From contig JACKGF010000001.1 of NCBI GenBank assembly GCA_020632095.1, positions 70,549 through 134,548 on the forward strand: a DNA stretch of 64,000 bases, read 5' to 3'. Positions 3,475 through 64,000 of the stretch are shown here, piece by piece. The stretch is from Candidatus Nomurabacteria bacterium (GTDB lineage Bacteria > Patescibacteriota > Minisyncoccia > Phycocordibacterales > UBA918). Numbering within the stretch: the first letter of the stretch is position 1; each line of letters starts with the position of its first letter. Below the pieces are notes generated by a model, which did not search any database, had not been told where the DNA came from, and saw only the letters and a program-made list of their open reading frames with translations. The position numbers and the translations under genes are program-made.

Positions 3475-3671
3475 GGTGAATCTCCTTTTCAAAGGTAAAA
3501 CCGTACTACGTTAAAGAGCTAACTTTTATACCTACTATCCTAGCACGCATCAGTGGATTTGTCAATAGAAACTGATTTGTTTTTCTGTCAAGACCAAGTT
3601 TAGAAAGGGGATTATGAGATACAAAAAAGCTTGTATCTGCATATAAATAATCGGTTTTCTGTAATTCATAT

Positions 3672-3714
3672 CAAAAAACAGGTGACTTAAGTAGCAAAAG
3701 CTACTTAAGTCACC
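3672..3714 (-). terminator. rho-independent terminator for the minus-strand gene 3765..4142
   Basis: Perfect 15-bp stem ggtgacttaagtagc / gctacttaagtcacc with loop aaaa. A T-run on the minus strand follows (A-run 3673-3679 on the plus strand). Confidence 0.5.
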
Positions 3715-3764
3715 GGTTAAATTTGGATGAATATGTTCCTTTTTATTTTTATTCGCTGTCGAGA

Positions 3765-14300: not shown

Positions 14301-16604
14301 AAGCTCTCTGTTAAAGGCAGTGGTACTGGCGCTGGCCGTGCTTTTAGTATCACCGATTCTGCTAATGTTGAAAAATTCACTGTGTTGGATAATGGGAATG
14401 TTGGGATTGGGGCTTCCGTCCCTGGAGCAAAACTAGATATTATTGATGAGTCTCAGCAAGGGTTGCTAACGGCGTTGCGACTAGGAGGTCAAGTTGCCGA
14501 TGATGGGGGTCGTTCTATTGATTTTAGTACGGCAAGTGCACTGAATACTTTTCTTACTGGCGCTCGAATTTCTGGGGTAAGGCACGGCGGTGCTTGGGGG
14601 TCACTCAGATTTTCTACACTAGGAGCTGACGGTCTCCAAGAGCGAGTCCGGTTTAGTCCAGATGGTAGTGTTGGTATTAGTACGACAACTCCGAATGCAA
14701 GACTTTCGATTGTGGGGTCTGGTGCTTCGGTTGTTACCAAGGCACTTCTTGTTTCGGATTCGAATAATGTGCCTTATGTTGTTGCGCATGATGAAGGGGG
14801 AGTTACTATTGGAAAACAAATGATTGTCACTTCCTTGTATACACTTGATGTTGGTGGTTCAGGCGATCAGTTTATTCGGTTAAAATCAATGGATAATGCT
14901 GGAAACGCTGGTGTTAATTTTAGTGGCGCAGGAGACAGGGGTTCCATTTATGGAACATTCGACTACAATATTAAAATAGAACCTAATGCACAGTATGGTT
15001 ATGCAGATGTGATTATAAATCCCAAAAATGGAAGCGCTACTCGGCTTGGTATACTCGATTCAACCCCTGACTTCGGTATTGAATCAGCCGCCACTTCCTC
15101 AAAAGGGTATTTCGGTATTTCGTCTACAGCCGGTGCTGATGGCGATATTTTCATGATTGATCCGAGTGGGAATATGGGAGTTGGGACGACTAGTCCAGGG
15201 GCGAAGTTGGATGTTGCAGGTAATGTATTGTTAGGACGAGGTGGCTTAATAGATACTCAACGCACTCTTTCAATAACTGGGGCAAAGCAAAGCTCTGGTG
15301 CAGACTACGCTCGTGTCGACTTTAAGAACTACGATCAAAATGGATCGTTAGGTGAATATGTTGGTGCCAGAATTAGTTCAGAAAATGCTGCTGGAGCAGA
15401 ATACGGCGACTTACGCTTTTGGACCCGCTCATCAACAATGCGAACCAATCCAGATATGATACTAAATAGTGCAGGAAACGTCGGCATCGGCACCACTTCA
15501 CCACTTGCCAAACTCTCTATTGCTGGTAATGGAACCGGCACCGGCCGCGCTTTTAGTATTACTGATTCTACCAACGTAGAAAAGTTCACTGTACTGGATA
15601 ATGGGAATGTGGGGATTGGGACAACGACGCCGGGGGCTAAGTTGGCAATTAGTGGCGGTAATATTAGGCTTGATAGTGATAGGAAACTTGAGTGGAATTA
15701 TGGATGGGAATATCTTTATGCAAATACATCTTCGGGAAACATCACTGCTTCTGTGAGAACAGGTTTAATTGTTAATGCGGACAACAACGATAACGACCTT
15801 CCTACGCATGTTGAATTTTCGGTACGATCAGGAAGTGCATTATCGGAGTTGTTTAGAATACAAAAGAACGGTAACGTCGGCATCGGGACCACCTCCCCCA
15901 ACAGCGCCCTCGACGTCATTGGTACTATTCAAGCTTCAAACCTACTCGGTGGGGCGGTCAATCTCACCACTGACGCCAACGGAAACATTATACGCGACCC
16001 ATCTGACGCTCGATTGAAGGAAAACATTCAAGAAATCTCTAATCCTCTCGATAAACTACTTAGTCTTCATGGTGTCTCGTATCAATGGAAAGACAAAGAG
16101 CGCTTTGGTGAACAGACAGAAATCGGATTTATTGCTCAAGAAGTTGACTCAATCCTACCTGAAGTAGTGCGCAAAGGCGGTGAATACTTCTCCCTCAACA
16201 CCCGCAACATTTTAGCGGTGGTAATAGAAGGCTTTAAGGAATTGTACGCCAAAGTAATGAGAAATTCCGATAAGATTGATTTGCTTGAACAGCAAAATGC
16301 ATCTTTAGAGCAAAATAATGTCGAACTAGAAACCCGACTCGAAGCCCTGGAAGCTCAGCTAAATGTTACTCCACCGGCACCGGTAGTGGTAGAAGATGAA
16401 GATGAACCGGAACAAGAAGAAACGAATCAGGATGAAGGGTCTGATAGTGCGAACCAAGAGGAAACAGAAGTTGCTGAAGAAGATGGTCTCGAGCCGATAG
16501 AAATAGTTCAAGATGAAGTGGAAGAAGAAACGCCCGCACTTACTACAGAGGAGCCTGAGGCGGATGAAGCTGAAGTTGTGCCAGAGACTGAAATTTCTGA
16601 ATAG
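11400..16604 (+). CDS. 1734-aa phage tail-fibre-like repeat protein with a C-terminal peptidase-S74 intramolecular chaperone domain, then a coiled coil and an acidic tail
   Basis: The repeated motif NVGIGTTSPLAKLSVKGSGTGTGRAFSITDSTNVEKFTVLDNGNVGIGT occurs at least 6 times. The C-terminal signature DARLKENIQEISNPLDKLLSLHGVSYQWKD...EIGFIAQEVDSILPEVV matches PF13884 / peptidase S74. Confidence 0.75.
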   Translation: MRRSTVGFCVMLLAVFGVTAVTLQPDFVIQDFTLRSSPIPAILYQQPLLQASSNVPTPTPASNLVSIQSQGVTQADLNNRITGLLLHMHWLLNDRGQSATVSTTRTNSSESKRIDRLERQIFSFMDESDDDRSDLSDDITNGGSFLNPTLTTATLNGTTTAGAFIVNGRLGVGTSSPVERLSINGAVYLADTTPTNSASRLYNTAGGLYWNGSLVAGGAVGSWTGSGGNVYRASGNVGIGTSAPDKLLHIKSQSGVYRSQISIDDSANNSGYARIDYNTDDSISWNAGVYSTNSSPDRGFAVSNNYSGWKDLLSVSPNGNVGIGTTSSLAKLSVKGSGTGTGRAFSITDSTNVEKFTVLDNGKVVLSGRQTIYNADATGFLNSLYFGDGGGSLSHTSGSEGYDNTAVGIGALYFNTIGSSNTANGLNSLYSNTTGSNNSANGVNSLFYNTTGNNNTANGFRTLEANTIGYNNTANGAYALLLNTTGSQNTANGITSLYSNTTGSNNVANGMESLYWNTVGYDNTSNGAYSLYFNITGYSNTANGKHALYSNTSGYYNTANGVNAGRYLADGTTANQTSSNSVFEGYDTRALTASGTNEIVIGASAIGNGSNSATLGNDSITKTILKGSVGIGTTSPLAKLSVTGSGTGTGRAFSITDSANAEKFTVLDNGNLGIGTSVPEGKLTVNGSTSDTPGSNSLLTLYAGTGKWVQRIDSSGNLNFDSNNGASMYSWVTINRVGNVGIGTTSPLAKLSVKGSGTGTGRAFSITDSTNVEKFTVLDNGNVGIGTSIPTVPLEVIAKSLNKGLRITRDSTNNSTLEFAEIGGIQARIYGIGASSAGQMAFLTGSGGGSEAMRITDTGNVGIGTSSPKTALQVGVSTDNYGVSAFTKLYTSGGGIRVGSASGSDYGYRIVRDPGSIFAPELNGDLVFIGDQANSFGNYAFLNQSGSVLLRILGGGNVGIGTTSPLAKLSVKGSGTGAGRAFSITDSANVEKFTVLDNGNVGIGASVPGAKLDIIDESQQGLLTALRLGGQVADDGGRSIDFSTASALNTFLTGARISGVRHGGAWGSLRFSTLGADGLQERVRFSPDGSVGISTTTPNARLSIVGSGASVVTKALLVSDSNNVPYVVAHDEGGVTIGKQMIVTSLYTLDVGGSGDQFIRLKSMDNAGNAGVNFSGAGDRGSIYGTFDYNIKIEPNAQYGYADVIINPKNGSATRLGILDSTPDFGIESAATSSKGYFGISSTAGADGDIFMIDPSGNMGVGTTSPGAKLDVAGNVLLGRGGLIDTQRTLSITGAKQSSGADYARVDFKNYDQNGSLGEYVGARISSENAAGAEYGDLRFWTRSSTMRTNPDMILNSAGNVGIGTTSPLAKLSIAGNGTGTGRAFSITDSTNVEKFTVLDNGNVGIGTTTPGAKLAISGGNIRLDSDRKLEWNYGWEYLYANTSSGNITASVRTGLIVNADNNDNDLPTHVEFSVRSGSALSELFRIQKNGNVGIGTTSPNSALDVIGTIQASNLLGGAVNLTTDANGNIIRDPSDARLKENIQEISNPLDKLLSLHGVSYQWKDKERFGEQTEIGFIAQEVDSILPEVVRKGGEYFSLNTRNILAVVIEGFKELYAKVMRNSDKIDLLEQQNASLEQNNVELETRLEALEAQLNVTPPAPVVVEDEDEPEQEETNQDEGSDSANQEETEVAEEDGLEPIEIVQDEVEEETPALTTEEPEADEAEVVPETEISE
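12357..12485 (+). repeat. intragenic near-identical ~130-bp direct repeat, copy 1
   Basis: The sequence aatgttggcatcggcaccacctcatcccttgccaaactctctgttaaaggcagtgg...ctggataatggg is shared at over 90% nucleotide identity with copies 2-5. Confidence 0.8.
13284..13409 (+). repeat. intragenic ~130-bp repeat, copy 2
   Basis: Near-identical to copy 1. GC content is higher than the surrounding gene body. Confidence 0.8.
13614..13755 (+). repeat. intragenic ~130-bp repeat, copy 3
   Basis: Near-identical to copy 1. Confidence 0.8.
14268..14410 (+). repeat. intragenic ~130-bp repeat, copy 4
   Basis: Near-identical to copy 1. Confidence 0.8.
15477..15620 (+). repeat. intragenic ~130-bp repeat, copy 5. 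A partial sixth copy lies at about 15876-15905.
   Basis: Near-identical to copy 1. Confidence 0.8.
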
Positions 16605-25374: not shown

Positions 25375-25417
25375 TGCTCTAAATATTTAGTTGTCGACTA
25401 AGGTACAATGTATAGAC

Positions 25418-27325
25418 ATGAAAGCGGTGTACGAAAAATGGACACTTTGGCTAGTGATTTTCTTCTTTGTAATAGTTGGAGTCTTTGTGTTTTCTCCACA
25501 GGTTACTAATGCTCTCAAGATCAATGAGTACAAAGACACTCTTAGTGACTCAGGTCCGCTTGAGCAAGCTAACCATACTTTTGACTTTGTTTTAAATACT
25601 GATGTATCACCAGGTGGAATTTTTGAAATTACTCCGCCAGCCGGTTTTACTGTTCTTTCGACTACTACTTTCGCTGAAAGAAACGTTGAACTCTTGGTTA
25701 ATGGGTCGGCTCGAACCGCGGGTACTGTAGCTGCACCAGGAGTAGATCAGGTAGAAATTACGGCTGGTTCACCGGGATTTTTTAGATACACACTGGCTCC
25801 GGATTCCGGGTTAACATCGGGCAGTCGTCTTAAGTTTAAAATCGGAAATCATACCTCAAATTCAGTAATGTCATCAGTCACCTTTAGTACATCTACTGGG
25901 ACCACTACTAATCCAGGAGATGTTGAACCGATAGTAAATTCGGGCATAACAGGCAAGCATGATGTTAAATTGGAAGTTTATGACGGTGGTTTAGTAGCAA
26001 ATGCTAACTTCGTGATTTTTTTAAATGAGAAGGTTAGTGTACCAAATATTGACACTACTGAGGAAATTCCACCTTTTCGCTTTGGCGGTTCGCCGACCAG
26101 TTCGGTGGGAGGAACTACTCTTTTTGTGGAGATCGGTTTAGAAACTGATGAGTTTGCGATCTGTAAATATAGTACAGTTGCCGATATTCCTTTTGGGTCT
26201 ATGTCAGATACTTTTTCTAACACTGGTCTAGTTTTTCATACCACTGTTGTACAGGTAGTTCCAAATTCATTAGCGCAGTTTTATGTTAGATGTATTGACG
26301 ATGAAGGAAATTTCAATATTGACGATTACTTAATTGCGTTTACCGTTAATGATATACCGACTGGAACGTCGAATACTGATGGTAATGTGGACGGAGATGG
26401 CACAGGTACTGGAAATGATGGTACTGGCTCAGGTGGTGGCGGTGGCGGGACGAGCGGTTCTTCTGATGGAGAAGCTCCAACTGAAGGTGGTACTAGTGGC
26501 GGTGGCGGATCAGGAGGTGGAGGAGGAGGTGGTTCAGGTGGTGGCTCTGGATCAACGGCTGGGGGCGGTTTCGAAAGTACAAGTGCACCCTATAGAAGTG
26601 GTGATGGTAGAGTAATTATTTCTGGATATGCCTATCCAAATAGCACAGTCAGTATTTTGGTTGATGGAAATTTCTTTGATACCACGAAAGCAAGTAATTT
26701 AGGTGTATACTCAATTACTTTAGATGAAATTGCTCGCGGAGTTTATACTTTTGGGGTTTATGCCCAAGGTTCTAACAATATAAAATCATCAACTTTTAGT
26801 ACCTCCTTTACTGTAACAGGTGCAAGAACTTCTGCTCTTGGTAATATCAACGTCTCTCCATCAATTCTGGTGGCTCCAAATCCTGTTCAACCAGGAGAGG
26901 TACTTACTGTATCCGGTTTTTCTTTACCAAATGCAAAAGTGACAATTCAAAATGGACGTCTAAAATCCAGTGTAGCAAATAAAGAATATGAGGTTCAGTC
27001 AGACAGCCAAGGTCGCTGGTCTACTACGATTGATACCACAGGCTTTACGGTGGATACATATCAAGTTAGAGCTAAGGCCGAACAGGAGGGTGGAGCAGTG
27101 ACTCATTATTCTGACTATACTTTTTACGGAGTGGGTCAGAAGGCAGATTTACCAATTAATACTGATTTGAATCGAGATGGTAAGGTTAATCTAATCGACT
27201 TCTCAATTATGCTTTTCTGGTGGAACACAAATGGTGGAGATTCAGATCCACCAGCAGATATTAACCGGGACGGGAAGGTGAGTTTGACGGATTTTTCTAT
27301 ACTTCTTTTCAATTGGACTGGGTAG
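25418..27325 (+). CDS. secreted protein with Gly-rich linker, Ig-like domains and a C-terminal dockerin-like double repeat. The ORF track starts at TTG 25391.
   Basis: Signal anchor. Poly-Gly/Ser linker, then C-terminal DLNRDGKVNLIDFSIMLF...DINRDGKVSLTDFSILLFNWTG (two DxNxDGxVNxxD repeats of the dockerin type). Confidence 0.6.
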   Translation: MKAVYEKWTLWLVIFFFVIVGVFVFSPQVTNALKINEYKDTLSDSGPLEQANHTFDFVLNTDVSPGGIFEITPPAGFTVLSTTTFAERNVELLVNGSARTAGTVAAPGVDQVEITAGSPGFFRYTLAPDSGLTSGSRLKFKIGNHTSNSVMSSVTFSTSTGTTTNPGDVEPIVNSGITGKHDVKLEVYDGGLVANANFVIFLNEKVSVPNIDTTEEIPPFRFGGSPTSSVGGTTLFVEIGLETDEFAICKYSTVADIPFGSMSDTFSNTGLVFHTTVVQVVPNSLAQFYVRCIDDEGNFNIDDYLIAFTVNDIPTGTSNTDGNVDGDGTGTGNDGTGSGGGGGGTSGSSDGEAPTEGGTSGGGGSGGGGGGGSGGGSGSTAGGGFESTSAPYRSGDGRVIISGYAYPNSTVSILVDGNFFDTTKASNLGVYSITLDEIARGVYTFGVYAQGSNNIKSSTFSTSFTVTGARTSALGNINVSPSILVAPNPVQPGEVLTVSGFSLPNAKVTIQNGRLKSSVANKEYEVQSDSQGRWSTTIDTTGFTVDTYQVRAKAEQEGGAVTHYSDYTFYGVGQKADLPINTDLNRDGKVNLIDFSIMLFWWNTNGGDSDPPADINRDGKVSLTDFSILLFNWTG

Positions 27326-27500
27326 GGTATACAGCTTGGCTTATGCGATTCGGGTTTACGTTCCAGCAGAATTAAGTAAGCAAAGGGAGGGAGTGAGTTT
27401 GACGGATTTTTCTATACTTCTTTTCAATTGGACTGGGTAGGGTATACAGCTTGGCTTATGCGTTCGGGTTTACGTTCCAGCGAATTAAGTAAGCAAAGGA
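27281..27500 (+). repeat. tandem duplication (2 copies of ~113 bp) spanning the stop codon of 25418..27325
   Basis: The unit gagtttgacggatttttctatacttcttttcaattggactgggtagggtatacagcttggcttatgcg(a)ttcgggtttacgttccagc(a)gaattaagtaagcaaagg occurs at 27281-27388 and again at 27395-27500. Confidence 0.8.
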
Positions 27501-27627
27501 ACGTAGTGACTATTGCGAACTTATGTCAGAATTTGCTCTGCCCTTGGGCAAATTCTGACTGCTCTAGGCAAAGCAAATCTCGGCAGCTTGCTACATGCTT
27601 TTTTCTCCTTTGGAAGTCTAAAAATCT
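27426..27627 (+). repeat. ~200-bp repeat, near-identical to 63615..63815
   Basis: Both copies read aattggactgggtagggtatacagcttggcttatgcgttcgggtttacgttccagcgaattaagtaagcaaaggaacgtagtgactattgcgaac...ctcctttggaagtctaaaaatc. They differ by a single T indel. Confidence 0.85.
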
Positions 27628-27793
27628 GCTACAAGTTATGCTACTCGTATTTTTAAATTTCACTACGTCCTGAAAAGCTTGGCTTATAAGTTCACTTTGC
27701 ATAGTAAAAATTAGTCGTAGTTATGCTACTCGTATTTTTAAACAAAGCAAATCTCAAACTAAATTCACAATAGTCACTACGTTCCTTTGTTCA
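27490..27793. mobile_element. MITE-like non-coding element (~304 bp) bounded by ~26-bp terminal inverted repeats
   Basis: Left end caaaggaacgtagtgactattgcgaa (27494-27519). Right end ttcacaatagtcactacgttcctttg (27764-27789) is its reverse complement at 25/26 positions. The interior has no ORF, a 10-bp hairpin, and an internal direct repeat ttatgctactcgtatttttaaa. Confidence 0.4.
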
Positions 27794-28270
27794 TTTATCA
27801 AATTGGACTGGGTAGGGTATACAGTTTGGCTTATGCGTTGGAGTTTACGTTCCTTGGCTTATACGTTCCTTTGTTCGGGTTTACGCTTATGCGTTCGGGT
27901 TTACGTTCCAGCGAATTAAGTAAGCAAAGGAACGTAGTGGTCAGAATTTGCTCAAGGCAGAGCAAATTCTGACATACAAAATTATAGTCATTACATTCCT
28001 TAATTTTTGCAACTATTGCGAACTTGTATCAGAATTTGTTGCTGAGAAATAATGCCTGAAGAGATTGTGTTTACGTTGTAAAAACTCATCTAAAATTAGT
28101 ACTGTTAACTATACTAATTTTTAACCAGTAATTTAGAGTTGGTTTGTTTTTGTGTGAGATAGAGGATTTTGCGATTTAGTCTAGGTAAACAAGAATAATG
28201 AGATTGAGTAATTTTTGTATACAAGTAGTCGCTTGCGTTTGGTTTACGTTCTTGTGATTTGCTTAGATGG
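27794..28270. repeat. degenerate, rearranged copies of the same intergenic repeat family
   Basis: Repeated motifs gcgttcgggtttacgttcc, gcgttggagtttacgttcc and gcgtttggtttacgttctt; hairpin gtcagaatttgctc/gagcaaattctgac at 27936-27975; partial TIR at 28009-28024. Confidence 0.6.
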
Positions 28271-28322
28271 GGCTGTGGGTAAGCTTGAAAATATTTAGTA
28301 TTCACTTGTATAATGTATTGGT

Positions 28323-28796
28323 ATGTCCTTTCTTCAAAGACTCAAAGGCCGCGGTGTTAGAAACGATGAAGCTTCATTGCAGTCTGATGCTGAGGAGACC
28401 GCTGTCGACAAAGTCGCACAGCTTCATGTTGATGTTTACCAAACCGAGAGAATGATTGTTGTGTATGCTCAATCAGCTGGCGCAGATATGAATGACGTTC
28501 ATGTTTCAATTGAAGGTGATGCCGATATCGTATTAATTGAAGGGAAACGAGTTAGACCAGAATATATTGTATTTCCAAGAAAAGTAGTTAAGGGTGCGTT
28601 TGTAGCCGAGGAGTGTGTCTGGGGAGATTTTTATCGCAGAATCATTTTACCAGAAAGTGTTAATATAGATAAAGCTGAGGCAAAGATTAAGAACGGTGTT
28701 TTAATATTAGTTTTACCATTACTCAAGCCAAACGAAAAAGAAAAGGTTCAGTTAAAAGTAGTTGGAAGTCCAAATCCAAGGAAGCGAAGCAGTTAA
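28323..28796 (+). CDS. Hsp20/alpha-crystallin-family small heat-shock protein
   Basis: Alpha-crystallin domain pattern: LHVDVYQTERMIVVYAQSAG...DVHVSIEGDADIVLIEGKR...GDFYRRIILPESVNIDKAEAKIKNGVLILVLP. Confidence 0.8.
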   Translation: MSFLQRLKGRGVRNDEASLQSDAEETAVDKVAQLHVDVYQTERMIVVYAQSAGADMNDVHVSIEGDADIVLIEGKRVRPEYIVFPRKVVKGAFVAEECVWGDFYRRIILPESVNIDKAEAKIKNGVLILVLPLLKPNEKEKVQLKVVGSPNPRKRSS

Positions 28797-28813: not shown

Positions 28814-30355
28814 ATGTTGCACCTTTTGAAAAAATCTACGCACCTGATAGCTACAATATTTTTTGTTGTTATATTTGTATTTCTACCACGTACTTATGTA
28901 GAAGCGGCTGATTTACTTCTGTCTCCAGGCACTGGTTCTTACTCAGCCGGTCAAACTTTTACAGCGACCGTTAGAGTGGTCCCTTCAGGCGATAGTGTCA
29001 ACGCCGTTGAAGCGGCATTAACTTTCGACCCGTCGGTTTTGTCAGTGGTTAGTGTTAGTAAAGATGGTTCGGTTTTTTCTCTTTGGACAACAGAGCCAGC
29101 TTTTTCAAATTCAAAAGGCACAATTGAGTTTGGTGGAGGAAGTCCTACTCCTTTCACTAATACTTCAAACATTTTAAATGTTACCTTTAGAACAGTTAAA
29201 GAAGGAGCGGGAGCGGTATCTTTTTCAAAAGGCTCAGTTCTGGCAGCTGATGGTAAAGGAACTGATGTCTATAAAAATTCCACTGGTGCTACCTATACTG
29301 TTGCTGCCGCCACTACCCCATCTCCAACTCCAACTCCATCTCCAACTCCAACTCCTAAGCCTGAAGAAACTACTGATTCAGGGGATGGAGGGGAAGCAAT
29401 TATTTTTGGTGACCCACCGCGCCCACCAGAAATTGGCTCTCAAACTTTTCTTGAACCTGAGGTTTGGTACAACATAACTAAAGGCATCTTCACTTGGACA
29501 CTACCATTTGATGTGAGTGAAGTGGCCGTTGAGATTTCAGATAATCCAGAAAATGTACCTCAAGACAATAAAGAAGCAATTAAAGTTCCTCCTGTCGAAG
29601 AATTTGCAATTTCACCTGAGGTGATTAAGGACGGTGTGCAGTACGTTAGTATTAATTTCAAAAACCAGGTTGGATGGGGAGCGGTAGTAAACCGTAAGCT
29701 TCAAATTGACACGACTGCTCCAGAACCGTTTGCAATTAATGTTAGAGCTGGTACAACTCAAAATTCATTCCCACTACTTAATTTCGAGGCTCGTGACGTA
29801 ACTTCAGGAATTCAGTATTACGATATGACTGTAGCTGATAAGGAGCCACTTCGAATTACTCCCGACGAAGCTCGTCTTGGATACATGTTGAAGGAACTTG
29901 AGGATGGTACCTATACAATAAAAGTGATTGCTACCGACATGGCCGGTAATACTCGAGAAAGTAGTGTCGCAGTCTTGATCACAGCCGGTTGGGTAAAGCC
30001 TGTTGAGGTGGTTGATGAAGGTTCTTTCTGGGACTTCCTGACAGCACTCAATTTATTTATTTTCTTCTTGCTTGTTGTGATTGTTCTGCAGGTAGTCTAC
30101 TTCTGGTACGAACACAAAGCTTTAAAGGAAAAGGAAGAAAAGTTACGAAGAGAGACACGTGAGATTCAGGACCAGATGGAGAAAATATTTTCAGCTTTGC
30201 GTGATGAAATTTACGACCAAATTAACACCATCACTAAACGAAAAAGATTATCTGCCAAGGAAAAGGAGGCTGTTGAAGGATTGACTCAGGCCCTAGAAGT
30301 GTCAGAAACCTTGATAGAGAAGGAAATCAATGATGTGAAGACAATTCTTAAGTAA
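28814..30355 (+). CDS. surface protein with signal/TM, TP-repeat linker, a TM helix and a C-terminal cytoplasmic coiled coil; hypothetical
   Basis: N-terminal hydrophobic anchor, TPSPTPTPSPTPTPKP linker, the TM helix LTALNLFIFFLLVVIVLQVVYFWY, then a K/E-rich coiled coil. Confidence 0.5.
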   Translation: MLHLLKKSTHLIATIFFVVIFVFLPRTYVEAADLLLSPGTGSYSAGQTFTATVRVVPSGDSVNAVEAALTFDPSVLSVVSVSKDGSVFSLWTTEPAFSNSKGTIEFGGGSPTPFTNTSNILNVTFRTVKEGAGAVSFSKGSVLAADGKGTDVYKNSTGATYTVAAATTPSPTPTPSPTPTPKPEETTDSGDGGEAIIFGDPPRPPEIGSQTFLEPEVWYNITKGIFTWTLPFDVSEVAVEISDNPENVPQDNKEAIKVPPVEEFAISPEVIKDGVQYVSINFKNQVGWGAVVNRKLQIDTTAPEPFAINVRAGTTQNSFPLLNFEARDVTSGIQYYDMTVADKEPLRITPDEARLGYMLKELEDGTYTIKVIATDMAGNTRESSVAVLITAGWVKPVEVVDEGSFWDFLTALNLFIFFLLVVIVLQVVYFWYEHKALKEKEEKLRRETREIQDQMEKIFSALRDEIYDQINTITKRKRLSAKEKEAVEGLTQALEVSETLIEKEINDVKTILK

Positions 30356-30445
30356 GCAAACGAGCGTAGCGACTATTGCGAACTTAGTTCTCAATTTGCC
30401 CCTTTCTTAGGGCAAATTGCTAGAACGTAAACCCGAACGCAAACG
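30353..30445 (-). repeat. inverted-orientation copy of the structured repeat unit, overlapping the stop codon of 28814..30355
   Basis: Conserved arm gcaaacgagcgtagcgactattgcgaacttag, then hairpin caatttgccc/gggcaaattg enclosed by gttct/agaac, then ctagaacgtaaacccgaacgcaaacg. This is the reverse complement of the unit seen at 63521-63614. Confidence 0.75.
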
Positions 30446-54138: not shown

Positions 54139-55728
54139 ATGTATCCTATGAATTTAAAAAAGTGGCGTGATACACTAATAGCTATGAGGAAAGTTTTGAA
54201 TTTGTTCTTGGTGCCAGTGATATGTCTTGCTCTGGTGTTATTATCAATGCCAGTTTTTACTGTATCGGCTGAGGATAGTACTGCTCCAGAAATCAGTAAC
54301 GTTCAGTTGATTGATGTATCGGACACTAGTGTAACTGTAACCTGGGAAACGGATGAAGATGCTGATTCTTTGGTTAACTATGGATTGCAACCGGATTACG
54401 GAATTGTACGTATTCCAGTAGCTGATCGCACCTCCCATTCAATTACTCTTAGTGACCTTGATCCGGGCAGGGTTTACTACTTTAGAGTGGTTTCGGCTGA
54501 TGAAAGTGGTAATCAGGGTATTTCGGCGGACTATCGAGTACAAACTTCTGGTACGCCACAAACGGGTGAGGGAGAAGGTACTGGACAGGCTGCCGCTGAA
54601 GGGGCTGGTAAAGGACCTCAGGATGGTATTGGTGATGGAGGTAGTTCAAATAATAATAGTGATTTAGCTACCCAAGAAATTATTGAGAAGATAAATCAAA
54701 TTATTAATCCAAAACAGTTGCAAGAAATTCTTAATGAAACAGTCAAGGCAATTGAAGGGATAACAGAAGACCTGACTATCGTTGGTCCGCCAACAGTTAT
54801 CCCAGAAACCACCACAGCATTAATTAAATGGAATACAGACCGTGAAGCTTCGTCAGAAGTCCTTTTCTCTCCAACTAAAAGTTTCGACGGGACAAATTTT
54901 GAATTTTCACAACAATCAACTGGTGGAGATGTGACCGAGCATGAGATTAATGTTATTGGACTAGATGCTTTCACAGAATATAGTTTTAAGGTTATTTCAA
55001 CCGATGGTTATGGAATTAGGGGGGAGAGTAAGGTTTATAAATTTAAGACCAAAGCAACCGCACCAGGGATTCGTAATTTGCGAGTCCTTAAAGTAGAAGA
55101 AAACGCCGCTACTTTAGCTTGGGATACAAATGTACCGGCTAAAGCCTTGGTTGAATACCAGGATCAGACTACTGGGGCTCAGAACTCAGTTGGTCGACCA
55201 ACTCTGTCCACTTCTCACCAAATGCGCTTGGCTGATTTGACTTTGGGTACGCGGTACGTGGCTTTTGTGACAGCTGAAAACTCTGGCGGAGACCGAGTAA
55301 AAAGTCAGCCAATTCAGTTTATTACAGTGCGAGATATTGCCGCTCCGATTATCACTAACGTTACCAATGAGTCAACTCTTTTCCCTGGTAGTGAGTCAAG
55401 AATTCAGACTATTATTGAATGGGATACTGATGAACCAGCACTTTGTTTGATGACTTATCAAGAAGGTGTGGCGGGAGCTTCTGAGTCCTATACTATTGAA
55501 AAAGAGGTAATCTCATATATTGAAAAGCACGTGGAAGTGGTGGTAGATTTTGCACCAGCGACGGTTTATCAGTTTTATTTGACTTGTGAGGATGAGGCCG
55601 GTAATAGTATCAAGTCTGATAATTTTGTGTTGTTTACGCCGATTCAGGAGAAGAATATTATTGACTTGATATTGGAGAACTTCCAGTCAACCTTCGGTTG
55701 GGTTAAGAATATCAGCGGAGGAGGTTAG
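54139..55728 (+). CDS. membrane-anchored protein with four fibronectin type III-like domains
   Basis: Starts 5 nt after the giant gene stop. N-terminal TM, then repeated FN3 signatures (APEISNVQLIDVSDTSVTVTWETDEDADSLVNYG...YYFRVVSADESGN). Confidence 0.6.
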   Translation: MYPMNLKKWRDTLIAMRKVLNLFLVPVICLALVLLSMPVFTVSAEDSTAPEISNVQLIDVSDTSVTVTWETDEDADSLVNYGLQPDYGIVRIPVADRTSHSITLSDLDPGRVYYFRVVSADESGNQGISADYRVQTSGTPQTGEGEGTGQAAAEGAGKGPQDGIGDGGSSNNNSDLATQEIIEKINQIINPKQLQEILNETVKAIEGITEDLTIVGPPTVIPETTTALIKWNTDREASSEVLFSPTKSFDGTNFEFSQQSTGGDVTEHEINVIGLDAFTEYSFKVISTDGYGIRGESKVYKFKTKATAPGIRNLRVLKVEENAATLAWDTNVPAKALVEYQDQTTGAQNSVGRPTLSTSHQMRLADLTLGTRYVAFVTAENSGGDRVKSQPIQFITVRDIAAPIITNVTNESTLFPGSESRIQTIIEWDTDEPALCLMTYQEGVAGASESYTIEKEVISYIEKHVEVVVDFAPATVYQFYLTCEDEAGNSIKSDNFVLFTPIQEKNIIDLILENFQSTFGWVKNISGGG

Positions 55729-56076
55729 GTATAGGGGTTATATACAATTTTGTATCGCCATGTTCCAGCGATTTGGCCTTGGAATGAGCCAAATCGGGAA
55801 CTAAATTCGAAATAATCGCTCCCGCTCATTTTCTCATTTATTCGGTTGGGTTAAGAATATCAGCGGAGGAGGTTAGGTATAGGGGTTATATACAATTTTG
55901 TATCGCCATGTTCCAGCGATTTGGCCTTGGAATGAGCCAAATCGGGAACTAAATTCGAAATAATCGCTCCCGCTCATTTTCTCATTTATTCGGTTGGGTT
56001 AAGAATATCAGCGGAGGAGGTTAGGTATAGGGGTTATATACAATTTTGTATCGCCATGTTCCAGCGATTTGGCCTT
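55691..56076 (+). repeat. tandem array (about 2.6 copies of 148 bp), each copy carrying the last 36 nt plus stop of gene 54139..55728 and a structured hairpin
   Basis: Unit: ttcggttgggttaagaatatcagcggaggaggttag + gtataggggttatatacaattttgtatcgccatgttccag + hairpin cgatttggc/gccaaatcg + ggaactaaattcgaaataatcgctcccgctcattttctcattta. Copies start at 55691, 55841 and 55989. Confidence 0.85.
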
Positions 56077-56078
56077 GG

Positions 56079-56326
56079 AAGGGGAATAATATGAGTAAAA
56101 TATTTTATAGTATAGGATTTTTGACTGCGTTCGGGTTTACGTTCTAGTAATTTGCCCTAGGAAGGGGAATAATATGAGTAAAATATTTTATAGTATAGGA
56201 TTTTTGACTGCGTTCGGGTTTACGTTCTAGTAATTTGCCCTAGGAAGGGGAATAATATGAGTAAAATATTTTATAGTATAGGATTTTTGACTGCGTTCGG
56301 GTTTACGTTCTAGTAATTTGCCCTAG
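56079..56326 (+). repeat. perfect 3x tandem repeat of an 83-bp unit, each containing an SD-like GGAAGGGG and an 18-codon mini-ORF
   Basis: Unit: gaaggggaataat + ATG AGT AAA ATA TTT TAT AGT ATA GGA TTT TTG ACT GCG TTC GGG TTT ACG TTC TAG + taatttgccctag. The mini-ORFs lie at 56091-56147, 56174-56230 and 56257-56313 and encode MSKIFYSIGFLTAFGFTF. Confidence 0.85.
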
Positions 56327-56520
56327 GAAGGGGGCAAATTAAGAACTAAATTCACAATAGTCGCTACGCTCGTTTGTTCATTTAATCTTCGGTTGGGTTA
56401 AGAATATCAGCGGAGGAGGTTAGGTGCAGTGCTGATGTCCGGCGATCTGCACTTGGAGGGAGTGGGATGTGGAGTAGTTGGTAGATGTGGATTCAAACAT
56501 AAGGTTTTTTAGACATAAGA
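56327..56520 (+). repeat. further repeat-family copy plus a partial third copy of the upstream gene tail
   Basis: Conserved arm aagaactaaattcacaatagtcgctacgctcgtttgttcatttaatc, then cttcggttgggttaagaatatcagcggaggaggttagg (56386-56423), then hairpin gcagtgctgatgtccggcgatctgcac. Confidence 0.7.
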
Positions 56521-56535
56521 TGCAATAATAGTTAA

Positions 56536-57858
56536 ATGGCGAAACCTCTCATTGTTTGTCGTGATCTATCGATTATTTATAATCAAGGTAAATCAAACGA
56601 ATTTAAAGCCCTGCAGGGGGTAAATACAGATATTTTTGAAGGTGAATACATCATTCTTTTTGGTGCATCAGGTTCTGGTAAGTCAACTTTGATGTATTCA
56701 ATTCAAGGCTCTCTGCCACCTGGAGAGGGGACTCTGCTTATTAAGGGTGACGATATTTATTCTTACCCACCGTCCGAACGAGTCTACTTTCAGCGTTATG
56801 TTATGGGTATTATCTTTCAGTCTTTCAACCTGATTGGTTCACTATCAGTGCTTGATAATGTGGCTCTACCAATGATTTTTTGTGATGCTGACCGTACAAC
56901 GCGCGAAAGACGTGCACAGTCTTTGCTCGATAGGTTTGGGGTAGGTCACGTGTCACATAAGATTCCGGCTATGCTTTCTGGAGGTCAGCAACAACGTGTG
57001 TCAGTGGCTCGTTCGATGGTTAATGACCCTAAGATTTTATTGGCTGACGAACCGACCGGAAACCTCGACTCAGTTTCAACCCAACAGGTGATGGATAAAA
57101 TTGACGAAATTAACACCTTTGATCGACGGACTATTATTATGGTGTCACACAATGCTGCTCACTTGAGCTATGCACATCGCGTTTATTACTTGAAAGATGG
57201 CTTTATTGTACGTGAAGTGGTTAATCCACAGCGTAAACAAATTAAACCAGTTAAGGAAGGGGAGACGATTGTAACTGAATTAGAGCAATTAGCTCGCTTG
57301 TTTCCGTATGACTCAGTTGAGACTCTGCGGGTTAAGAGTTTAGTTAATTATCTAACTCAAGATTTCAGTTTCGATCAGATTATTCGTCTTGAACGAGCGA
57401 CGGGAATGTTTATTCAAGGGAAGGTTGATAGAGATGCTTATATTAAAAGTCTGGTTCTACCACTTGAAAGGGGTGGGGTGGAGGTTGATACGAAAGAAGC
57501 AAGGCGAATGGCTAGTGTGACAGAAAGTTTGATAAATAACGCTGACGATATTAGACGTTATCGAGCCAGAAAGGACAACAATAGTATTTTCTTTAGTCAG
57601 CATAAATTGGCCGAGCGTATCAGTGAACACTTGTCTCAAAAATATAATATCAAGCTAAATAAAGAGCAGAACACAAATATTACAGAATTAATCGCTGATA
57701 GAGTAACTGGTGTGATTGAGGATGACGATCTTAACCAACGTTTAATGAAAGGAGTTAAATCTGGTGGTCTCGGACTGAGTGAGAAAGAAGCTGATGATAT
57801 TACTAGGTATTTTGAGAAGGTTATTGCTCAAGGGGTTGATGTTAGTTATAAGAATTAG
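56536..57858 (+). CDS. ABC transporter ATP-binding protein (MacB/LolD/FtsE-like) with a ~210-aa C-terminal extension
   Basis: Walker A GASGSGKST, signature LSGGQQQRVSVARS, Walker B ILLADEPTGNLD, H-loop VSHN. The domain ends near residue 225 and is followed by an uncharacterised charged, helical extension. Confidence 0.85.
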   Translation: MAKPLIVCRDLSIIYNQGKSNEFKALQGVNTDIFEGEYIILFGASGSGKSTLMYSIQGSLPPGEGTLLIKGDDIYSYPPSERVYFQRYVMGIIFQSFNLIGSLSVLDNVALPMIFCDADRTTRERRAQSLLDRFGVGHVSHKIPAMLSGGQQQRVSVARSMVNDPKILLADEPTGNLDSVSTQQVMDKIDEINTFDRRTIIMVSHNAAHLSYAHRVYYLKDGFIVREVVNPQRKQIKPVKEGETIVTELEQLARLFPYDSVETLRVKSLVNYLTQDFSFDQIIRLERATGMFIQGKVDRDAYIKSLVLPLERGGVEVDTKEARRMASVTESLINNADDIRRYRARKDNNSIFFSQHKLAERISEHLSQKYNIKLNKEQNTNITELIADRVTGVIEDDDLNQRLMKGVKSGGLGLSEKEADDITRYFEKVIAQGVDVSYKN

Positions 57859-58140
57859 TGTCTGGGTATAATTTTATAGTGTATAGCGATGAAGTTTGTT
57901 TAGTGTGGGTGGTATTATAAATATAATGATGTGTAGTCTGTCAGACTTCCAACGTCCAGCAATTTCGTCTAGGAAGGTTTTTGCTGTAATTATTGGTGTA
58001 TATCAGGGAATTTAGTTTTGTTGGGGTGGTATTATAAATATAAATGCAAGGCGTTGGGGACGTCCAGGAATTCGCCCTAGGACAGGGGCGAATTCGGACA
58101 TAAATTCAAAATAATCGCTTCCGCTCATTTTTTCATTCAA
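57859..58140 (+). repeat. intergenic copy of the structured repeat family between the ABC ATPase and permease genes
   Basis: Direct repeats gtgggtggtattataaatataa (57905) and ggggtggtattataaatataa (58023). Hairpin gaattcgccc/gggcgaattc enclosed by gtcc/ggac (58062-58099). Conserved arm acataaattcaaaataatcgcttccgctcattttttcatt. Confidence 0.75.
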
Positions 58141-61445: not shown

Positions 61446-62399
61446 ATGAGATCTAACTTCCAAAAACTTTTGGTATTCAGCCTGTTGCTACCAGTGCTTT
61501 TTTTGAGTACGGGAGCATCAGAAGTATTTGCTGGATTTGGTATTACACCGCCTTATGTTAAGAATACAAGTCTGACGCGCAACTCTACATATGAGCAACA
61601 AATCCTTTTGGTAAGAGGGGAGACAAACATTGCGCAAAAGGCTGAAATTATTGTTGATGCTCCTGAAATCGCAGATTGGATTGAAGTGGTTGAAGGAGAC
61701 GAAATTAAGATGCCAAAAGGGGTTCAGAAAGTACCGATGACAGTTAGGGTTAAAGTGCCGAGTAATGCTGAGTTTAAAGACTACACAGGTTCGATTCGTA
61801 TTCGTACTTTACCTGATGATGATCAAGTGGCGGCAGGTGCGGTTAGCATCTCGCTCGGAGCTTTGGTTGATATTAGGTTATCAGTTATTGATAAAAAAAT
61901 TAAAGATTTTAGAGTAAGAAGAATCTCAGCTCCAGATTTAAATGCCGGACACAAATTACTTTGGATGTTTTTCCCTGGTAAAATTCGATTTGATATGTTG
62001 ATTGAAAATACTGGTAATGTAGACATTTCACCGTCTAAAGTTGAATTCAGAATTTTTGACCGAGCGGGAAAGGTACTGTTAGAAGAAACCAAGAATCTAG
62101 GAAAAATTAAAGAAATAGCTCCCTATGCTACAGAAAGTGTTGTGGCTGAATTACCAACCCGCCTGCCTGCTAATGGTTACATAGCGAGATACAAGATCTA
62201 TAACGGAGATGATATAAAGCAGGAAGGCGATTTAAGTCTTAATATTTTGCCGTACGGCACTCTTCAGCTGGCAGGATTTGGATTCTTTGGACTCTCAATT
62301 GCACACAAGATTTCAATATTACTCCCAGTATTTGCCTTAATGATTGCAGGTTTATACGTATGGCATGCCCGTCGAAAAAAGAAACTGGAGATTGTATAA
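61446..62399 (+). CDS. surface protein with signal peptide and C-terminal TM anchor plus basic tail; hypothetical. The ORF track starts at TTG 61440.
   Basis: Signal MRSNFQKLLVFSLLLPVLFLSTGASEVFA, a beta-rich ectodomain, and a C-terminal TM ILLPVFALMIAGLYVWHARRKKK. Similar architecture to 23858..24946. Confidence 0.5.
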   Translation: MRSNFQKLLVFSLLLPVLFLSTGASEVFAGFGITPPYVKNTSLTRNSTYEQQILLVRGETNIAQKAEIIVDAPEIADWIEVVEGDEIKMPKGVQKVPMTVRVKVPSNAEFKDYTGSIRIRTLPDDDQVAAGAVSISLGALVDIRLSVIDKKIKDFRVRRISAPDLNAGHKLLWMFFPGKIRFDMLIENTGNVDISPSKVEFRIFDRAGKVLLEETKNLGKIKEIAPYATESVVAELPTRLPANGYIARYKIYNGDDIKQEGDLSLNILPYGTLQLAGFGFFGLSIAHKISILLPVFALMIAGLYVWHARRKKKLEIV

Positions 62400-62401
62400 C
62401 T

Positions 62402-63505
62402 ATGCGTTATTTTGCATTTTCAATCCTCTGGATTTTAACCATAGGTTCACCACTTGTTGTAACTGCAGATTTCTCAGCCTCAACAACATTGACGCTAAGT
62501 ATCTGTGGAAACATGGTTGTTGATCCGGGAGAGCAGTGTGATGTAGTTGGTGAAACTGGGGTTTATAGTCAAACAATCGCAGGGAGACAGTGTACTCCGC
62601 AATGTAATTATGGTCCTTATTGTGGAGACGGTATTTTGCAAACAGCTCATTCTGAAGAATGTGATGATGGCAACAATGACAATGGCGACTTCTGTTCAGC
62701 TATTTGTAAAATTGAACCAGCTGGTTCTGGTGGAGGTGGCTCATCTGGAGGTAATTCGTCTGGTGGTGGAGGAAGTTCAGTAAAGCTTAACAATACACAA
62801 ATTAATGTGGTTGGTAGGGCTTATCCTTCAAGGACTATCAATTTCCTTAGAGATACTATTTCAATTGGCAATGTGCGTTCCGATAGTGATGGTAATTTTG
62901 AATTTTCGGCTGAATCATCACCTGGTACAGCTACACTTGGTATTTGGGCAACAGACAGTGCTAATAATCGTTCTATAACACTTAATAAAACTTTTGATGT
63001 GACACAAGGAGCGGTAACAAATATTAGGGGGATTGTTTTACCTCCGACCATCACTGTACCAAATCAGAAAGTTGATCCTGGTGCTCTAGTGGCTGTATCT
63101 GGACAAAGTGTTCCTAATAGTACGGTTGAACTTCATATTGATAATAGCTCATTGATTGAGAACACAACGTCAGGAGCCAATGGAAATTGGACAATAAATT
63201 TAGATACCAGCAAAATTTCGATTGCTGAGCATATTTTACGAGCTAGGACAATTGTCGGGACACCACCACTCACTGTACAAAGTAGCTTCAGTACCTCCTT
63301 GCAGTTATTTGTTGGGGTTGATGGAAAAGTGACCACGCCCTCAGATTTAAACCGTGATGGATCAATAAATCTAATTGACTTTTCAATCTTAATTTTCTGG
63401 TGGGGGACTGCTGGCGGTGACTCAAATCCGCCAGCTGATATTAATGCGAATGGTAAGGTAGGGTTGGAGGATTTTTCTATATTATTATTTAATTGGACTG
63501 GGTAG
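62402..63505 (+). CDS. secreted protein with Cys-rich repeat (CGDG...ECDDGN type), Gly/Ser linker, Ig-like domains and a C-terminal dockerin-like double repeat. The ORF track starts at 62360.
   Basis: Signal peptide. CGDGILQTAHSEECDDGNNDNGDFCSAIC matches the myxococcal-type cysteine-rich repeat pattern. The C-terminus DLNRDGSINLIDFSILIF...DINANGKVGLEDFSILLFNWTG is dockerin-like, and the C-terminal half is paralogous to 25418..27325. Confidence 0.6.
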   Translation: MRYFAFSILWILTIGSPLVVTADFSASTTLTLSICGNMVVDPGEQCDVVGETGVYSQTIAGRQCTPQCNYGPYCGDGILQTAHSEECDDGNNDNGDFCSAICKIEPAGSGGGGSSGGNSSGGGGSSVKLNNTQINVVGRAYPSRTINFLRDTISIGNVRSDSDGNFEFSAESSPGTATLGIWATDSANNRSITLNKTFDVTQGAVTNIRGIVLPPTITVPNQKVDPGALVAVSGQSVPNSTVELHIDNSSLIENTTSGANGNWTINLDTSKISIAEHILRARTIVGTPPLTVQSSFSTSLQLFVGVDGKVTTPSDLNRDGSINLIDFSILIFWWGTAGGDSNPPADINANGKVGLEDFSILLFNWTG

Positions 63506-64000
63506 GGTATACAGCTTGTTGTTTGCGTTGGAGTTTACGTTCCAGCGATTTGCTCTAGGCAAAGCAAATCGGGAACTAAATTCACAATAGTCACTACGTT
63601 CCTTTGTTCATTTAAATTGGACTGGGTAGGGTATACAGCTTGGCTTATGCGTTCGGGTTTACGTTCCAGCGAATTAAGTAAGCAAAGGAACGTAGTGACT
63701 ATTGCGAACTTATGTCAGAATTTGCTCTGCCCTTGGGCAAATTCTGACTGCTCTAGGCAAAGCAAATCTCGGCAGCTTGCTACATGCTTTTTCTCCTTTG
63801 GAAGTCTAAAAATCATAAGCAACTGCATAAGTAAAAATTAGTCTTAGCTATGCTACTCGTATTTTTACTCAAACCAAATTCAGCATAGTCGCTTCCGCTC
63901 TTTGCTTCATTTAAATTGGACTGGGTAGGGTATACAGCTTGTTGTTTGCGTTGGAGTTTACGTTCCAGCGATTTGCTCTAGGCAAAGCAAATCGGGAACT
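63486..64000 (+). repeat. array of repeat-family units beginning at the last 20 nt of gene 62402..63505 and running to the window edge
   Basis: Units begin with aattggactgggtagggtatacagcttg at 63490, 63615 and 63915. The hairpin cgatttgc/gcaaatcg is enclosed by gttcc/ggaac (63539-63576 and again 63948-63985). Conserved arm ggaactaaattcacaatagtcactacgttcctttgttcattta. Confidence 0.85.
63615..63815 (+). repeat. ~200-bp repeat near-identical to 27426..27627
   Basis: See 27426..27627. The same long variant of the unit, with the TIR-type arm inserted between gttccag and the hairpin. Confidence 0.85.

Follow-up and report, generated by a model that had tools for sequence, protein, structure and literature searches.

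A two-hairpin intergenic repeat held in shape by compensatory base changes and arrayed beside duplicated gene ends in Patescibacteria

A 64,000-nucleotide stretch of a Candidatus Nomurabacteria genome (contig JACKGF010000001.1, positions 70,549 to 134,548; this whole stretch is referred to here as the window) carries, between the gene of an fn3-domain surface protein (54139-55728) and that of an ABC ATPase (56536-57858), a tandem, mosaic array of a non-coding repeat of about 80 nt, here named E, over the interval 55691-56520. Consistent with an earlier note drawn from the letters of the window, which had described a structured repeat family at five intervals, a covariance model and scans against shuffled sequence find the family in all five, and the P1 and P2 stem variants quoted in that note are present as written. 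E is built of three helices, P1, P2 and P3, all of which are kept by compensatory change; the element recurs across the Patescibacteria, where it is accompanied at several sites by a duplicated gene end. Comparison of these properties with those of known systems leads us to favour, tentatively and at close to even chances, a non-coding, non-autonomous, structure-dependent interspersed repeat copied by a structure-specific enzyme acting in trans, in the manner of REP/REPIN elements.

The architecture of E shows hairpin I (P1, an AG bulge, P2 and a loop) directly abutting a second hairpin, P3. Helix P1 consists of 4-5 bp, with GTTCC/GGAAC, GTCC/GGAC and GCCG/TGGC among its forms, and is separated by the invariant AG bulge from P2, a helix of 9-10 bp whose sequence is highly variable and which is closed by the loop YTAGGAAR. 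P3 starts from a 5-bp foot, TAAAT/ATTTA covarying to GAAGT/ACTTC, followed by a TC/TC internal loop, by 4-5 bp of which the first two pairs occur in every Watson-Crick combination, and by an inner region, ARTC-[RC.TNC.GY]-TCR, with a 2-bp apical stem. In a structure-blind MAFFT alignment of 77 copies (72 foreign and 5 from the window), RNAalifold predicts 20 pairs, with compensatory double changes in 15 of them. The structure was then extended to 27 pairs by outer P3 pairs recognised by eye and recounted: 94.3% of cells are paired as against 77.3% in column shuffles (none of 500 shuffles as high), double changes occur in 18 of the 27 pairs, double-change cells number 351 versus 103 in shuffles, and the covariation score is 0.46 versus 0.16. 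Sliding the partners by 1-3 columns lowers pairing to 20-50%. Covariation in the two stems for which the earlier note had proposed it is thus statistically supported, and extends to a third stem, P3.

A mutual-information scan over 114 distinct model-aligned copies leads to the same helices, the top pairs being exactly the proposed Watson-Crick pairs. The sole extra signal is an AA↔GG exchange in the P3 inner loop (positions 69/81); since no other signal lies outside the helices, a loop-loop pseudoknot was rejected. Single copies adopt the proposed fold on either strand (z = -2.8 to -5.1). Because the pattern used to retrieve loci from other genomes falls within P3, the constancy of the P3 core is in part built in; the 3′ strand of P3, hairpin I and the hairpin-I loop were left free by the pattern. 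The step from compensatory change to selection on structure, made by the earlier note, is sound, but by itself it fits a DNA and an RNA hairpin alike. G.U-type and A.C-type mismatches are about equally frequent.

When one genome per species was searched with a degenerate 24-nt pattern taken from what the earlier note had called the 3′ arm, at least 117 genome stretches matched; among the matches listed, almost all are metagenome-assembled genomes of Patescibacteria, labelled Kaiserbacteria, Paceibacteria/Paceibacterota, Parcubacteria and Saccharibacteria. Five matches in coding sequence of Acidobacteria and Gammaproteobacteria are due to chance, as the covariance model found nothing there. The same model detects about 140 copies in 112 Patescibacteria loci, with E-values down to 1e-19, and E is frequently present 2-4 times per 8 kb of these loci, which suggests tens of copies per genome of about 1 Mb. 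The proteins of the window themselves occur identically in GCA_020428725.1 (JAGQMI01) and in several metagenome assemblies. The earlier note had recognised no described family, and this stands: Rfam 15 gives 0 matches in the window at the gathering threshold, only chance matches (E > 5) at a permissive threshold over 63480-63640, and nothing at E in 16 other loci; a tRNA/tmRNA search of the window finds none; and full-text literature searches for described repeats or RNA motifs of the candidate phyla radiation (CPR) bacteria show no match to E. A known RNA family was rejected on the Rfam searches. So was a phage or plasmid origin, the one IMG/VR match being a chance one that the covariance model does not uphold and blastn giving no match to E in phage and plasmid collections. 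An interspersed structured bacterial repeat is a known kind of element; new in E are its two-hairpin architecture, its phylum-wide sequence conservation and the duplication of gene ends.

In the window, the covariance model built from the 77 copies reports full copies on the forward strand at 55746-55841, 55894-55989, 56291-56385, 58045-58140 and 63523-63615, and on the reverse strand at 30348-30442, 27485-27576 and 63674-63765, together with degenerate, truncated and half units (Table 1); copies in both orientations had been noted from the outset. The conserved arms of the earlier note fared less evenly. Both recur, a 21-nt 5′ arm with 10 matches at up to 3 mismatches and the 3′ arm core with 4, each against 0 in shuffles, but the 3′ arm is the covarying helix P3, and the 5′ arm GCGTTCGGGTTTAC belongs to this genome alone, without a counterpart elsewhere, and gives way to a different sequence in units 55746 and 55894. 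The core is preceded in this genome by an arm of about 33 nt starting GGTATA. Chance or artefact is ruled out by the shuffle controls, three independent assemblies and phylum-wide recurrence. A weak model match (20.9 bits) at 3662-3756 is a perfect intergenic hairpin of about 17 bp (GGTGACTTAAGTAGC..GCTACTTAAGTCACC) that looks like an ordinary terminator-like palindrome outside the E family.

The order of the array at 55691-56520 was derived from sequence reading and exact-match scans. It starts with the gene end T1 (37 nt with the stop codon), a 32-nt arm and an E core of about 80 nt; this series is repeated once, identically, and a third T1-arm follows whose E is broken off inside the hairpin loop. 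Three 83-nt units come next, all terminating at an identical loop position (..CCCTAGGAA/GGGG..), and a complete E of another type and a fourth T1 close the array, beyond which the native sequence resumes. Tandem Repeats Finder reports two repeats here, one of 148 bp in 2.6 copies (100% identity) at 55693-56080, the other of 83 bp in 3.2 copies at 56067-56333. The copy number is taken from metagenome assemblies, and independent assemblies have fewer units, so that exact counts are uncertain.

Table 1. Copies of E and duplicated gene ends in the window
Feature	Position	Strand	Basis
T1, 37-nt end of the fn3-domain gene 54139-55728, including stop TAG and 1 further nt	55693..55729	+	exact-match scan, repeat family D11, sequence
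T1, identical copies	55841-55877, 55989-56025, 56388-56424	+	exact-match scan
Unit A copy 1: 32-nt 5′ arm (55730-55761) and E core (55762-55840)	55730..55840	+	model score 86.7 bits, fold, scan
Unit A copy 1, core: P1 GTTCC/GGAAC, AG bulge, P2 CGATTTGGC/GCCAAATCG, loop CTTGGAATGA, then P3	55762-55840	+	
Unit A copy 2, 100% identical with copy 1	55878..55988	+	Tandem Repeats Finder, covariance model, exact-match scan
Unit A copy 3, ending inside the hairpin-I loop (..CCTTGGAA/GGGG..)	56026..56080	+	sequence, exact-match scan
Three 83-nt B units, each a 42-nt stretch, 5′ arm GCGTTCGGGTTTAC and left half of hairpin I to CTAGGAA; junctions in the hairpin-I loop	56081..56329	+	Tandem Repeats Finder, exact-match scan
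Complete type-B E core: P1 GTTCT/AGAAC, P2 TAATTTGCCC/GGGCAAATTA; then ATC, T1 copy 4 and native downstream sequence	56307..56384	+	95 bits, fold
E core, P1 GTCC/GGAC	58062..58139	+	83.5 bits, fold
Left-half hairpin beside E core 58062..58139	~57948-57975		
(T2-arm-E)n array past dockerin gene 62360-63505 (paralogous to dockerin gene 25391-27325); the window end cuts the final copy	63491..64000	+	exact-match scan, covariance model
Same array: E core	63539-63614		
Same array: T2 copies	63491, 63615, 63914		
Same array: nested inverted E	63674-63765		
Same array: degenerate copy	63827-63914		
Inverted E with 5′ arm	30349..30442	-	94.3 bits, fold
Mosaic past dockerin gene 25391-27325	27278..28270	+	sequence, covariance model, exact-match scan
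Same mosaic: 48 nt of gene end, two copies belonging to a 113-nt tandem duplication	27278-27325, 27393-27440		
Same mosaic: nested inverted E	27485-27576	-	
Same mosaic: P3 remnant	27720-27798		
Same mosaic: deletion scars	27835-27905		
Same mosaic: degenerate E	27923-28012		

The arrays are unstable. Near-identical strains with identical flanks differ from the window by the 113-nt tandem duplication, by a 62-nt indel and by the number of A and B units, and show an intact unit where the window shows a deletion scar. An independent assembly (L001) has two B units with single-nucleotide polymorphisms between them, which are therefore distinct copies; short-read assemblies can collapse repeats, and unit counts are accordingly uncertain. 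The array junctions are located in the hairpin-I loop. At window positions 27485 and 63674, inverted copies sit inside hairpin I of direct copies.

Precise insertions are found in two other genomes (loci L064 and L037), in which a whole E, P1 and P3 complete to their outermost bases, splits the loop of a related hairpin. The nested element (ATCCAG...TTCATTTA) lies exactly between ..TTTC and TC(T/C)C.. of its host, and comparison with the uninterrupted locus L038 shows that zero bases were gained or lost at the insertion. The host is a third hairpin type, GCAGC..CTATTTC-TCCCCTAGGAAGGGG-TC-GAAATA..CTGCAT (L038:6130-6215 on the reverse strand, L064:4950-5085 and L037:3870-4010), which shares the CTAGGAA loop, can stand for hairpin I ahead of P3 and hosts the nested E insertions. 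Fragments of IS3-family OrfA/OrfB at L022:4062-4618 abut P3 without hairpin I; a link of IS3 to E was rejected, this being an unrelated insertion into an E copy.

Duplication-free nested insertions, copies in both orientations, presence or absence at orthologous sites and rearrangement between near-identical strains are the evidence that points towards a non-autonomous DNA element. A DNA-level element, as the earlier note had argued, is the most economical reading because the orientation of E relative to genes is not fixed and its nested insertions are precise. E would act as folded single-stranded or cruciform DNA, and a structure-specific enzyme, encoded elsewhere in the genome, would recognise it and copy the 80-nt unit precisely to new sites, much as RAYT transposases copy REP/REPIN elements, with exposed hairpin loops and gene boundaries as the favoured targets. 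Arrays such as 55691-56520 may then grow, shrink and scramble through unequal recombination or slippage, both between the duplicated gene ends (T) and inside the loop of hairpin I. Copies inside transcripts would be passively transcribed, and some may have been co-opted as RNA structures, candidates being those in the efp 5′ untranslated region (UTR), downstream of 5S rRNA and at the 3′ ends of surface-protein genes in the window. The enzyme, the single-stranded form and the part of recombination in array dynamics are what we infer from these patterns.

Gene-end duplication accompanies E. The bases just past P3 repeat the stretch just upstream of the arm over 11-55 nt, giving a (T-arm-E)n-T arrangement, and in the window every unit is followed by a re-copy of the final 24-48 nt of the upstream gene, the T copies being 100% identical. 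The duplication is seen in the window and independently in other genomes, with lengths of 27 nt × 3 (L080), 14 nt (L073), 17 nt (L096, the 17 nt after 5S rRNA being repeated on the far side of E), at least 47 nt (L081), 11 nt (L066) and 13 nt (L090); no permuted control reaches 12 nt. The duplicated stretch is always a gene end, namely the 3′ end with its stop codon in the window, the reverse complement of the start-codon region in L073 and L080, and the 3′ flank of 5S rRNA in L096. The copies in L073 and L047 are orthologous and the L047 duplicate has diverged, so the duplication event is old. The variable length of the duplication argues against the fixed stagger of a transposase.

Such duplications bring to mind a SINE-like retroposon, in which an RNA ending at the P3 foot would be inserted by target-primed reverse transcription with a trans-acting reverse transcriptase; this model, which we regard as highly improbable, predicts a fixed 3′ end, a variable 5′ arm and target duplications of variable length. 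The 3′ end of E is indeed fixed and flush, the arm lengths vary and the direct repeats of 11-55 nt begin exactly at the end of P3. Reverse transcriptases of diversity-generating retroelements (DGRs) are common in CPR bacteria, and an open reading frame (ORF) at L008:1198-2238, on the reverse strand, shows a DGR- or retron-type reverse-transcriptase N-terminus (..LLGAWEEFLKGKRKRKDVQEF..) and starts about 320 nt from E, as a single case. However, no reverse transcriptase recurs near E in the flanks and none lies in the window, nested copies lack any duplication, 5′-truncated (P3-only) copies are not commoner than 3′-truncated ones, among which are the B units, and the L096 arm contains an intrinsic terminator, all of which speak against retroposition.

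The position of E relative to genes is equally characteristic, and bears on the alternative that E is primarily a functional structured RNA. About 40% of copies have the end of P3 flush with an ORF boundary, where either a same-strand start codon lies 0-6 nt past the helix or the stop codon of a convergent gene lies at -6 to +1 and is supplied by the TAA or TGA within TAAATGA; the opposite side keeps a gap of 24-57 nt, the arm. The description of the family as arrayed at gene 3′ ends fits the window but is not general, P3 elsewhere ending next to a start codon or to the stop codon of a convergent gene. In the window, the ATG of a MacB-like permease gene (58141) comes 1 nt past P3 of the core at 58062-58139, and the stop TAA (30353-30355) of the cohesin-domain gene 28814-30355 falls within the P3 foot of the inverted E at 30349-30442. 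Recurrent neighbours are housekeeping genes in conserved synteny (ABC transporters, an ECF sigma factor, RecA, FtsK, EF-P, S6, SSB and a VWA protein), and the genes between inverted E pairs are ordinary.

According to the RNA alternative, which we consider a serious rival though on balance unlikely, E could either act in cis, as a module for RNA processing or stability, or be the gene of a small RNA. In one version a leader E is cut at the 3′ foot of P3, so that the mRNA begins at its AUG, as in the tRNA punctuation of mitochondrial transcripts; its premise is a largely Shine-Dalgarno-free translation of probably leaderless mRNAs, and copies in 3′ UTRs would protect RNA ends. In keeping with this, the base next to the P3 helix opens a start codon in at least six independent loci, in six efp orthologues and at window position 58141. 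Upstream of efp in these six species stands a canonical promoter (TTGCTT, 17 nt, TGGTATAAA), then about 45 nt, E and the flush ATG, an arrangement conserved although the P2 stems all differ; the efp-linked E is degenerate in a seventh species (L099) and absent in an eighth (L054). Same-strand copies of E also lie 100-400 nt downstream of the 5S rRNA gene at L024:6854-6962, L034:3789-3896 and L096:4280-4400 (reverse strand). A Shine-Dalgarno-like motif is found in just 22 of 266 genes of the 112 loci, so a start codon right after a helix is not obviously a problem, and the pooled profile upstream of ATG has its maxima at -12 T and -11 A, a sign that leaderless mRNAs may be widespread. Finally, the AA↔GG covariation and the conserved internal loops are typical of RNA motifs. 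A TATAAT box 8-9 nt ahead of the hsp20 ATG at 28323 was seen in the window (28290-28325).

Set against the RNA alternative is, first, orientation: of the copies between co-directional genes, 25 are antisense and 12 sense, and the conserved loop sequences would differ when read from the other strand. E also lies on the C-rich strand in 71 cases versus 41 (p = 0.006), and the two biases are inseparable from each other. Upstream of E, -10-like hexamers are not enriched on its own strand (32 versus 45 on the opposite one); GTATA, as found in the GGTATA that opens the arms of the window, is mildly enriched (21 versus 8), and a promoter of its own in the 5′ arm is not supported. The A.C mismatches as frequent as G.U ones, the empty Rfam searches, and nested insertions and arrays, which are properties of DNA, further disfavour a primary function as RNA. 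Two further candidates were discarded. E is not an intrinsic terminator, since neither hairpin is followed by a T-run on either strand and L096 has real terminators standing beside E, and it is not a small peptide gene, as the reverse-strand open frame across P3 has no start codon, the covarying dinucleotide would give non-conservative residues and the other frames hold stop codons of the host.

Genes for a recombinase, transposase or reverse transcriptase are absent from the window, as the earlier note had said with regard to recombinases, and protein clustering over about 0.8 Mb of flanks finds none that recurs beside E; a crude motif screen of the same flanks finds no HUH or tyrosine-recombinase signature, and by clustering and motif screen no RAYT gene flanked by repeats occurs in window or flanks. 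A search for an autonomous parent copy was likewise negative, hairpin I without a canonical P3 always being followed by a degenerate P3 and never by a gene.

Several points weigh against a REP/REPIN-like DNA element. A RAYT-like system should leave a repeat-flanked gene in a few of the roughly 112 loci, and clustering and the crude motif screen reveal none. Flank duplications of variable length, 11-55 nt, are produced by no known hairpin-recognising transposase, and duplicated flanks and duplication-free nested copies are not derivable from one known mechanism. The replication-strand bias is just 71:41; a mechanism of the IS200/IS605 type is expected to give a much stronger one. Loops that are near-invariant from Saccharibacteria to Kaiserbacteria, the AA↔GG covariation in the P3 inner loop, and the retention of E in the efp 5′ UTR with differing stems, downstream of a canonical promoter, suit a functional RNA equally well. 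A bolder proposal, which we hold to be improbable, is that E is the recognition module of an undescribed, phylum-conserved system specific to Patescibacteria, acting either in a new hairpin-guided DNA mobility with variable gene-end duplication or in RNA punctuation, with cleavage at the P3 foot generating leaderless mRNAs where Shine-Dalgarno initiation is lacking.

Patescibacteria have tiny, streamlined genomes with few recognised mobile elements, and despite this they keep tens of copies of an 80-nt element selected for its fold. Because that fold is under selection and its loops are near-constant from Saccharibacteria to Kaiserbacteria, a conserved partner, protein or RNA, is implied. A partner that proved to be a new hairpin-specific DNA enzyme or a new RNA-processing route would be of general interest and, if RAYT-like, would make E part of the first REPIN-type system outside the classical phyla. 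In practical terms, E arrays differ between near-identical strains and so offer a ready strain-typing marker, and they explain assembly breaks at certain intergenic sites in Patescibacteria.

Other repeats and genes were observed alongside E. At L119:6640-6800 and also in L023, L024, L069, L090, L093, L095 and L107, E is preceded at a distance of 20-40 nt by a second structured repeat; its layout is GGTGAGAAAGTGAC..GTCACTTTCGCAAGACTCATTGAG-[hairpin]-CCAATGAGTGGACAG-CTTC-TGTAA-GAAG, with ACTCATTG/CAATGAGT pairing as a long-range stem and a small hairpin that covaries, and it has no Rfam match. Positions 30734-54133 of the window are a single 7799-aa ORF with internal repeats and DUF2341/pentaxin-like matches; given its neighbours, which are proteins with cohesin, dockerin and fn3 domains, the product is probably a giant surface protein like those known from CPR bacteria. 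A 1734-aa ORF (11400-16604) contains five coding repeats of about 160 nt (84-91% identical) at 12343-15622, and UmuD-like (Peptidase_S24) and Y-family polymerase (IMS, IMS_C, DUF4113) domains occur among the ORFs at 657-24946.

Of the candidates listed in the earlier note, a REP/BIME-like element comes closest to E, whereas an integron attC-like site, an IS110-type bridge/guide element and IS200/IS605 ends, whether subterminal hairpins or fused as in palindrome-associated transposable elements (PATEs), find no support, and we consider this group of explanations barely credible. E does share with such systems a construction from hairpins with an invariant bulge, duplication-free nested insertions and a weak replication-strand bias. 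An attC site, however, would require RYYYAAC/GTTRRRY cores, ORF cassettes and IntI: no such cores are present, P1 (GTTCC..GGAAC) has the opposite polarity and no RRR, the units hold no ORF, hairpin I and P3 enclose a gene in none of the copies, and no integrase is encoded in the window. A bridge or guide RNA would be the non-coding end of an IS110 element beside its recombinase gene, with internal loops that bind target and donor; there is no IS110-family gene in window or flanks, and the architecture is one of two simple hairpins. With IS200/IS605 PATEs, E has in common that it is non-autonomous, hairpin-defined at both ends, free of duplications in the nested cases and somewhat strand-biased. 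Unlike theirs, the hairpins of E are terminal rather than subterminal and reach the unit ends, other copies have long flank duplications, and no TnpA or TnpB gene is seen in the window or the 0.8 Mb of flanks. A PATE would insert 3′ of a fixed tetra- or pentanucleotide and leave no duplication; for E, no conserved target tetranucleotide is seen: the nested copies in L064 and L037 have TTC on the left without duplication, and the left flanks of other copies are not conserved and share no target motif. A diversity-generating retroelement, which would need a reverse transcriptase and a template and a variable repeat that differ at adenines, was also rejected, the T copies being 100% identical and just 24-48 nt long and the window lacking a reverse transcriptase.

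Abundant intergenic repeats of about 100 nt close to gene starts and ends are found in Neisseria as Correia elements, to which E is similar, although it lacks their terminal inverted repeats and TA duplication; we know of no enzyme that mobilises Correia elements, and E is alike in that. The MIRU units of mycobacteria, like those of E, are tandem, touch stop and start codons and vary in number between strains, but unlike E they are, to our knowledge, not conserved in structure. TIGR-Tas arrays combine box C/D motifs, dual spacers of 8-12 nt and an adjacent Nop-domain Tas protein (PMC12045711). The E consensus has no C/D boxes and the window encodes no Nop-domain protein, and this candidate too was set aside. 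In plasmid pMV158, the nick sequence TACTACG/AC of RepB, an HUH rolling-circle initiator, lies in the loop of the IR-I hairpin (PMC1851628). The P3 apex of E (RCTACGY, ACTACG in window copies) likewise places a short conserved motif on a variable stem; unlike the RepB site, it has no Rep gene and the array junctions are not at the P3 apex, and a match of 5-6 nt could be due to chance, so that the resemblance is a lead rather than evidence.

Among known systems, E behaves most like the REP/BIME/REPIN elements that are served by RAYT in Proteobacteria. It differs from them in being about 80 nt long, with two different hairpins and near-invariant loops, whereas REP is a palindrome of 20-40 nt with a 5′ GTAG; in the alignment no GTAG stands ahead of hairpin I, and the motif turns up solely when the P3 apex is read on the complementary strand. 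Sequence conservation spans a phylum for E and a genus for REP, no RAYT-like gene is found near E, and it has the neighbouring gene end duplicated at its side. Like REP/BIME/REPIN elements, E is extragenic, multi-copy, present in both orientations and devoid of an internal gene; its hairpin structure is kept by compensatory change, it forms mosaic clusters and arrays of variable copy number, and its positions are long retained at orthologous sites.

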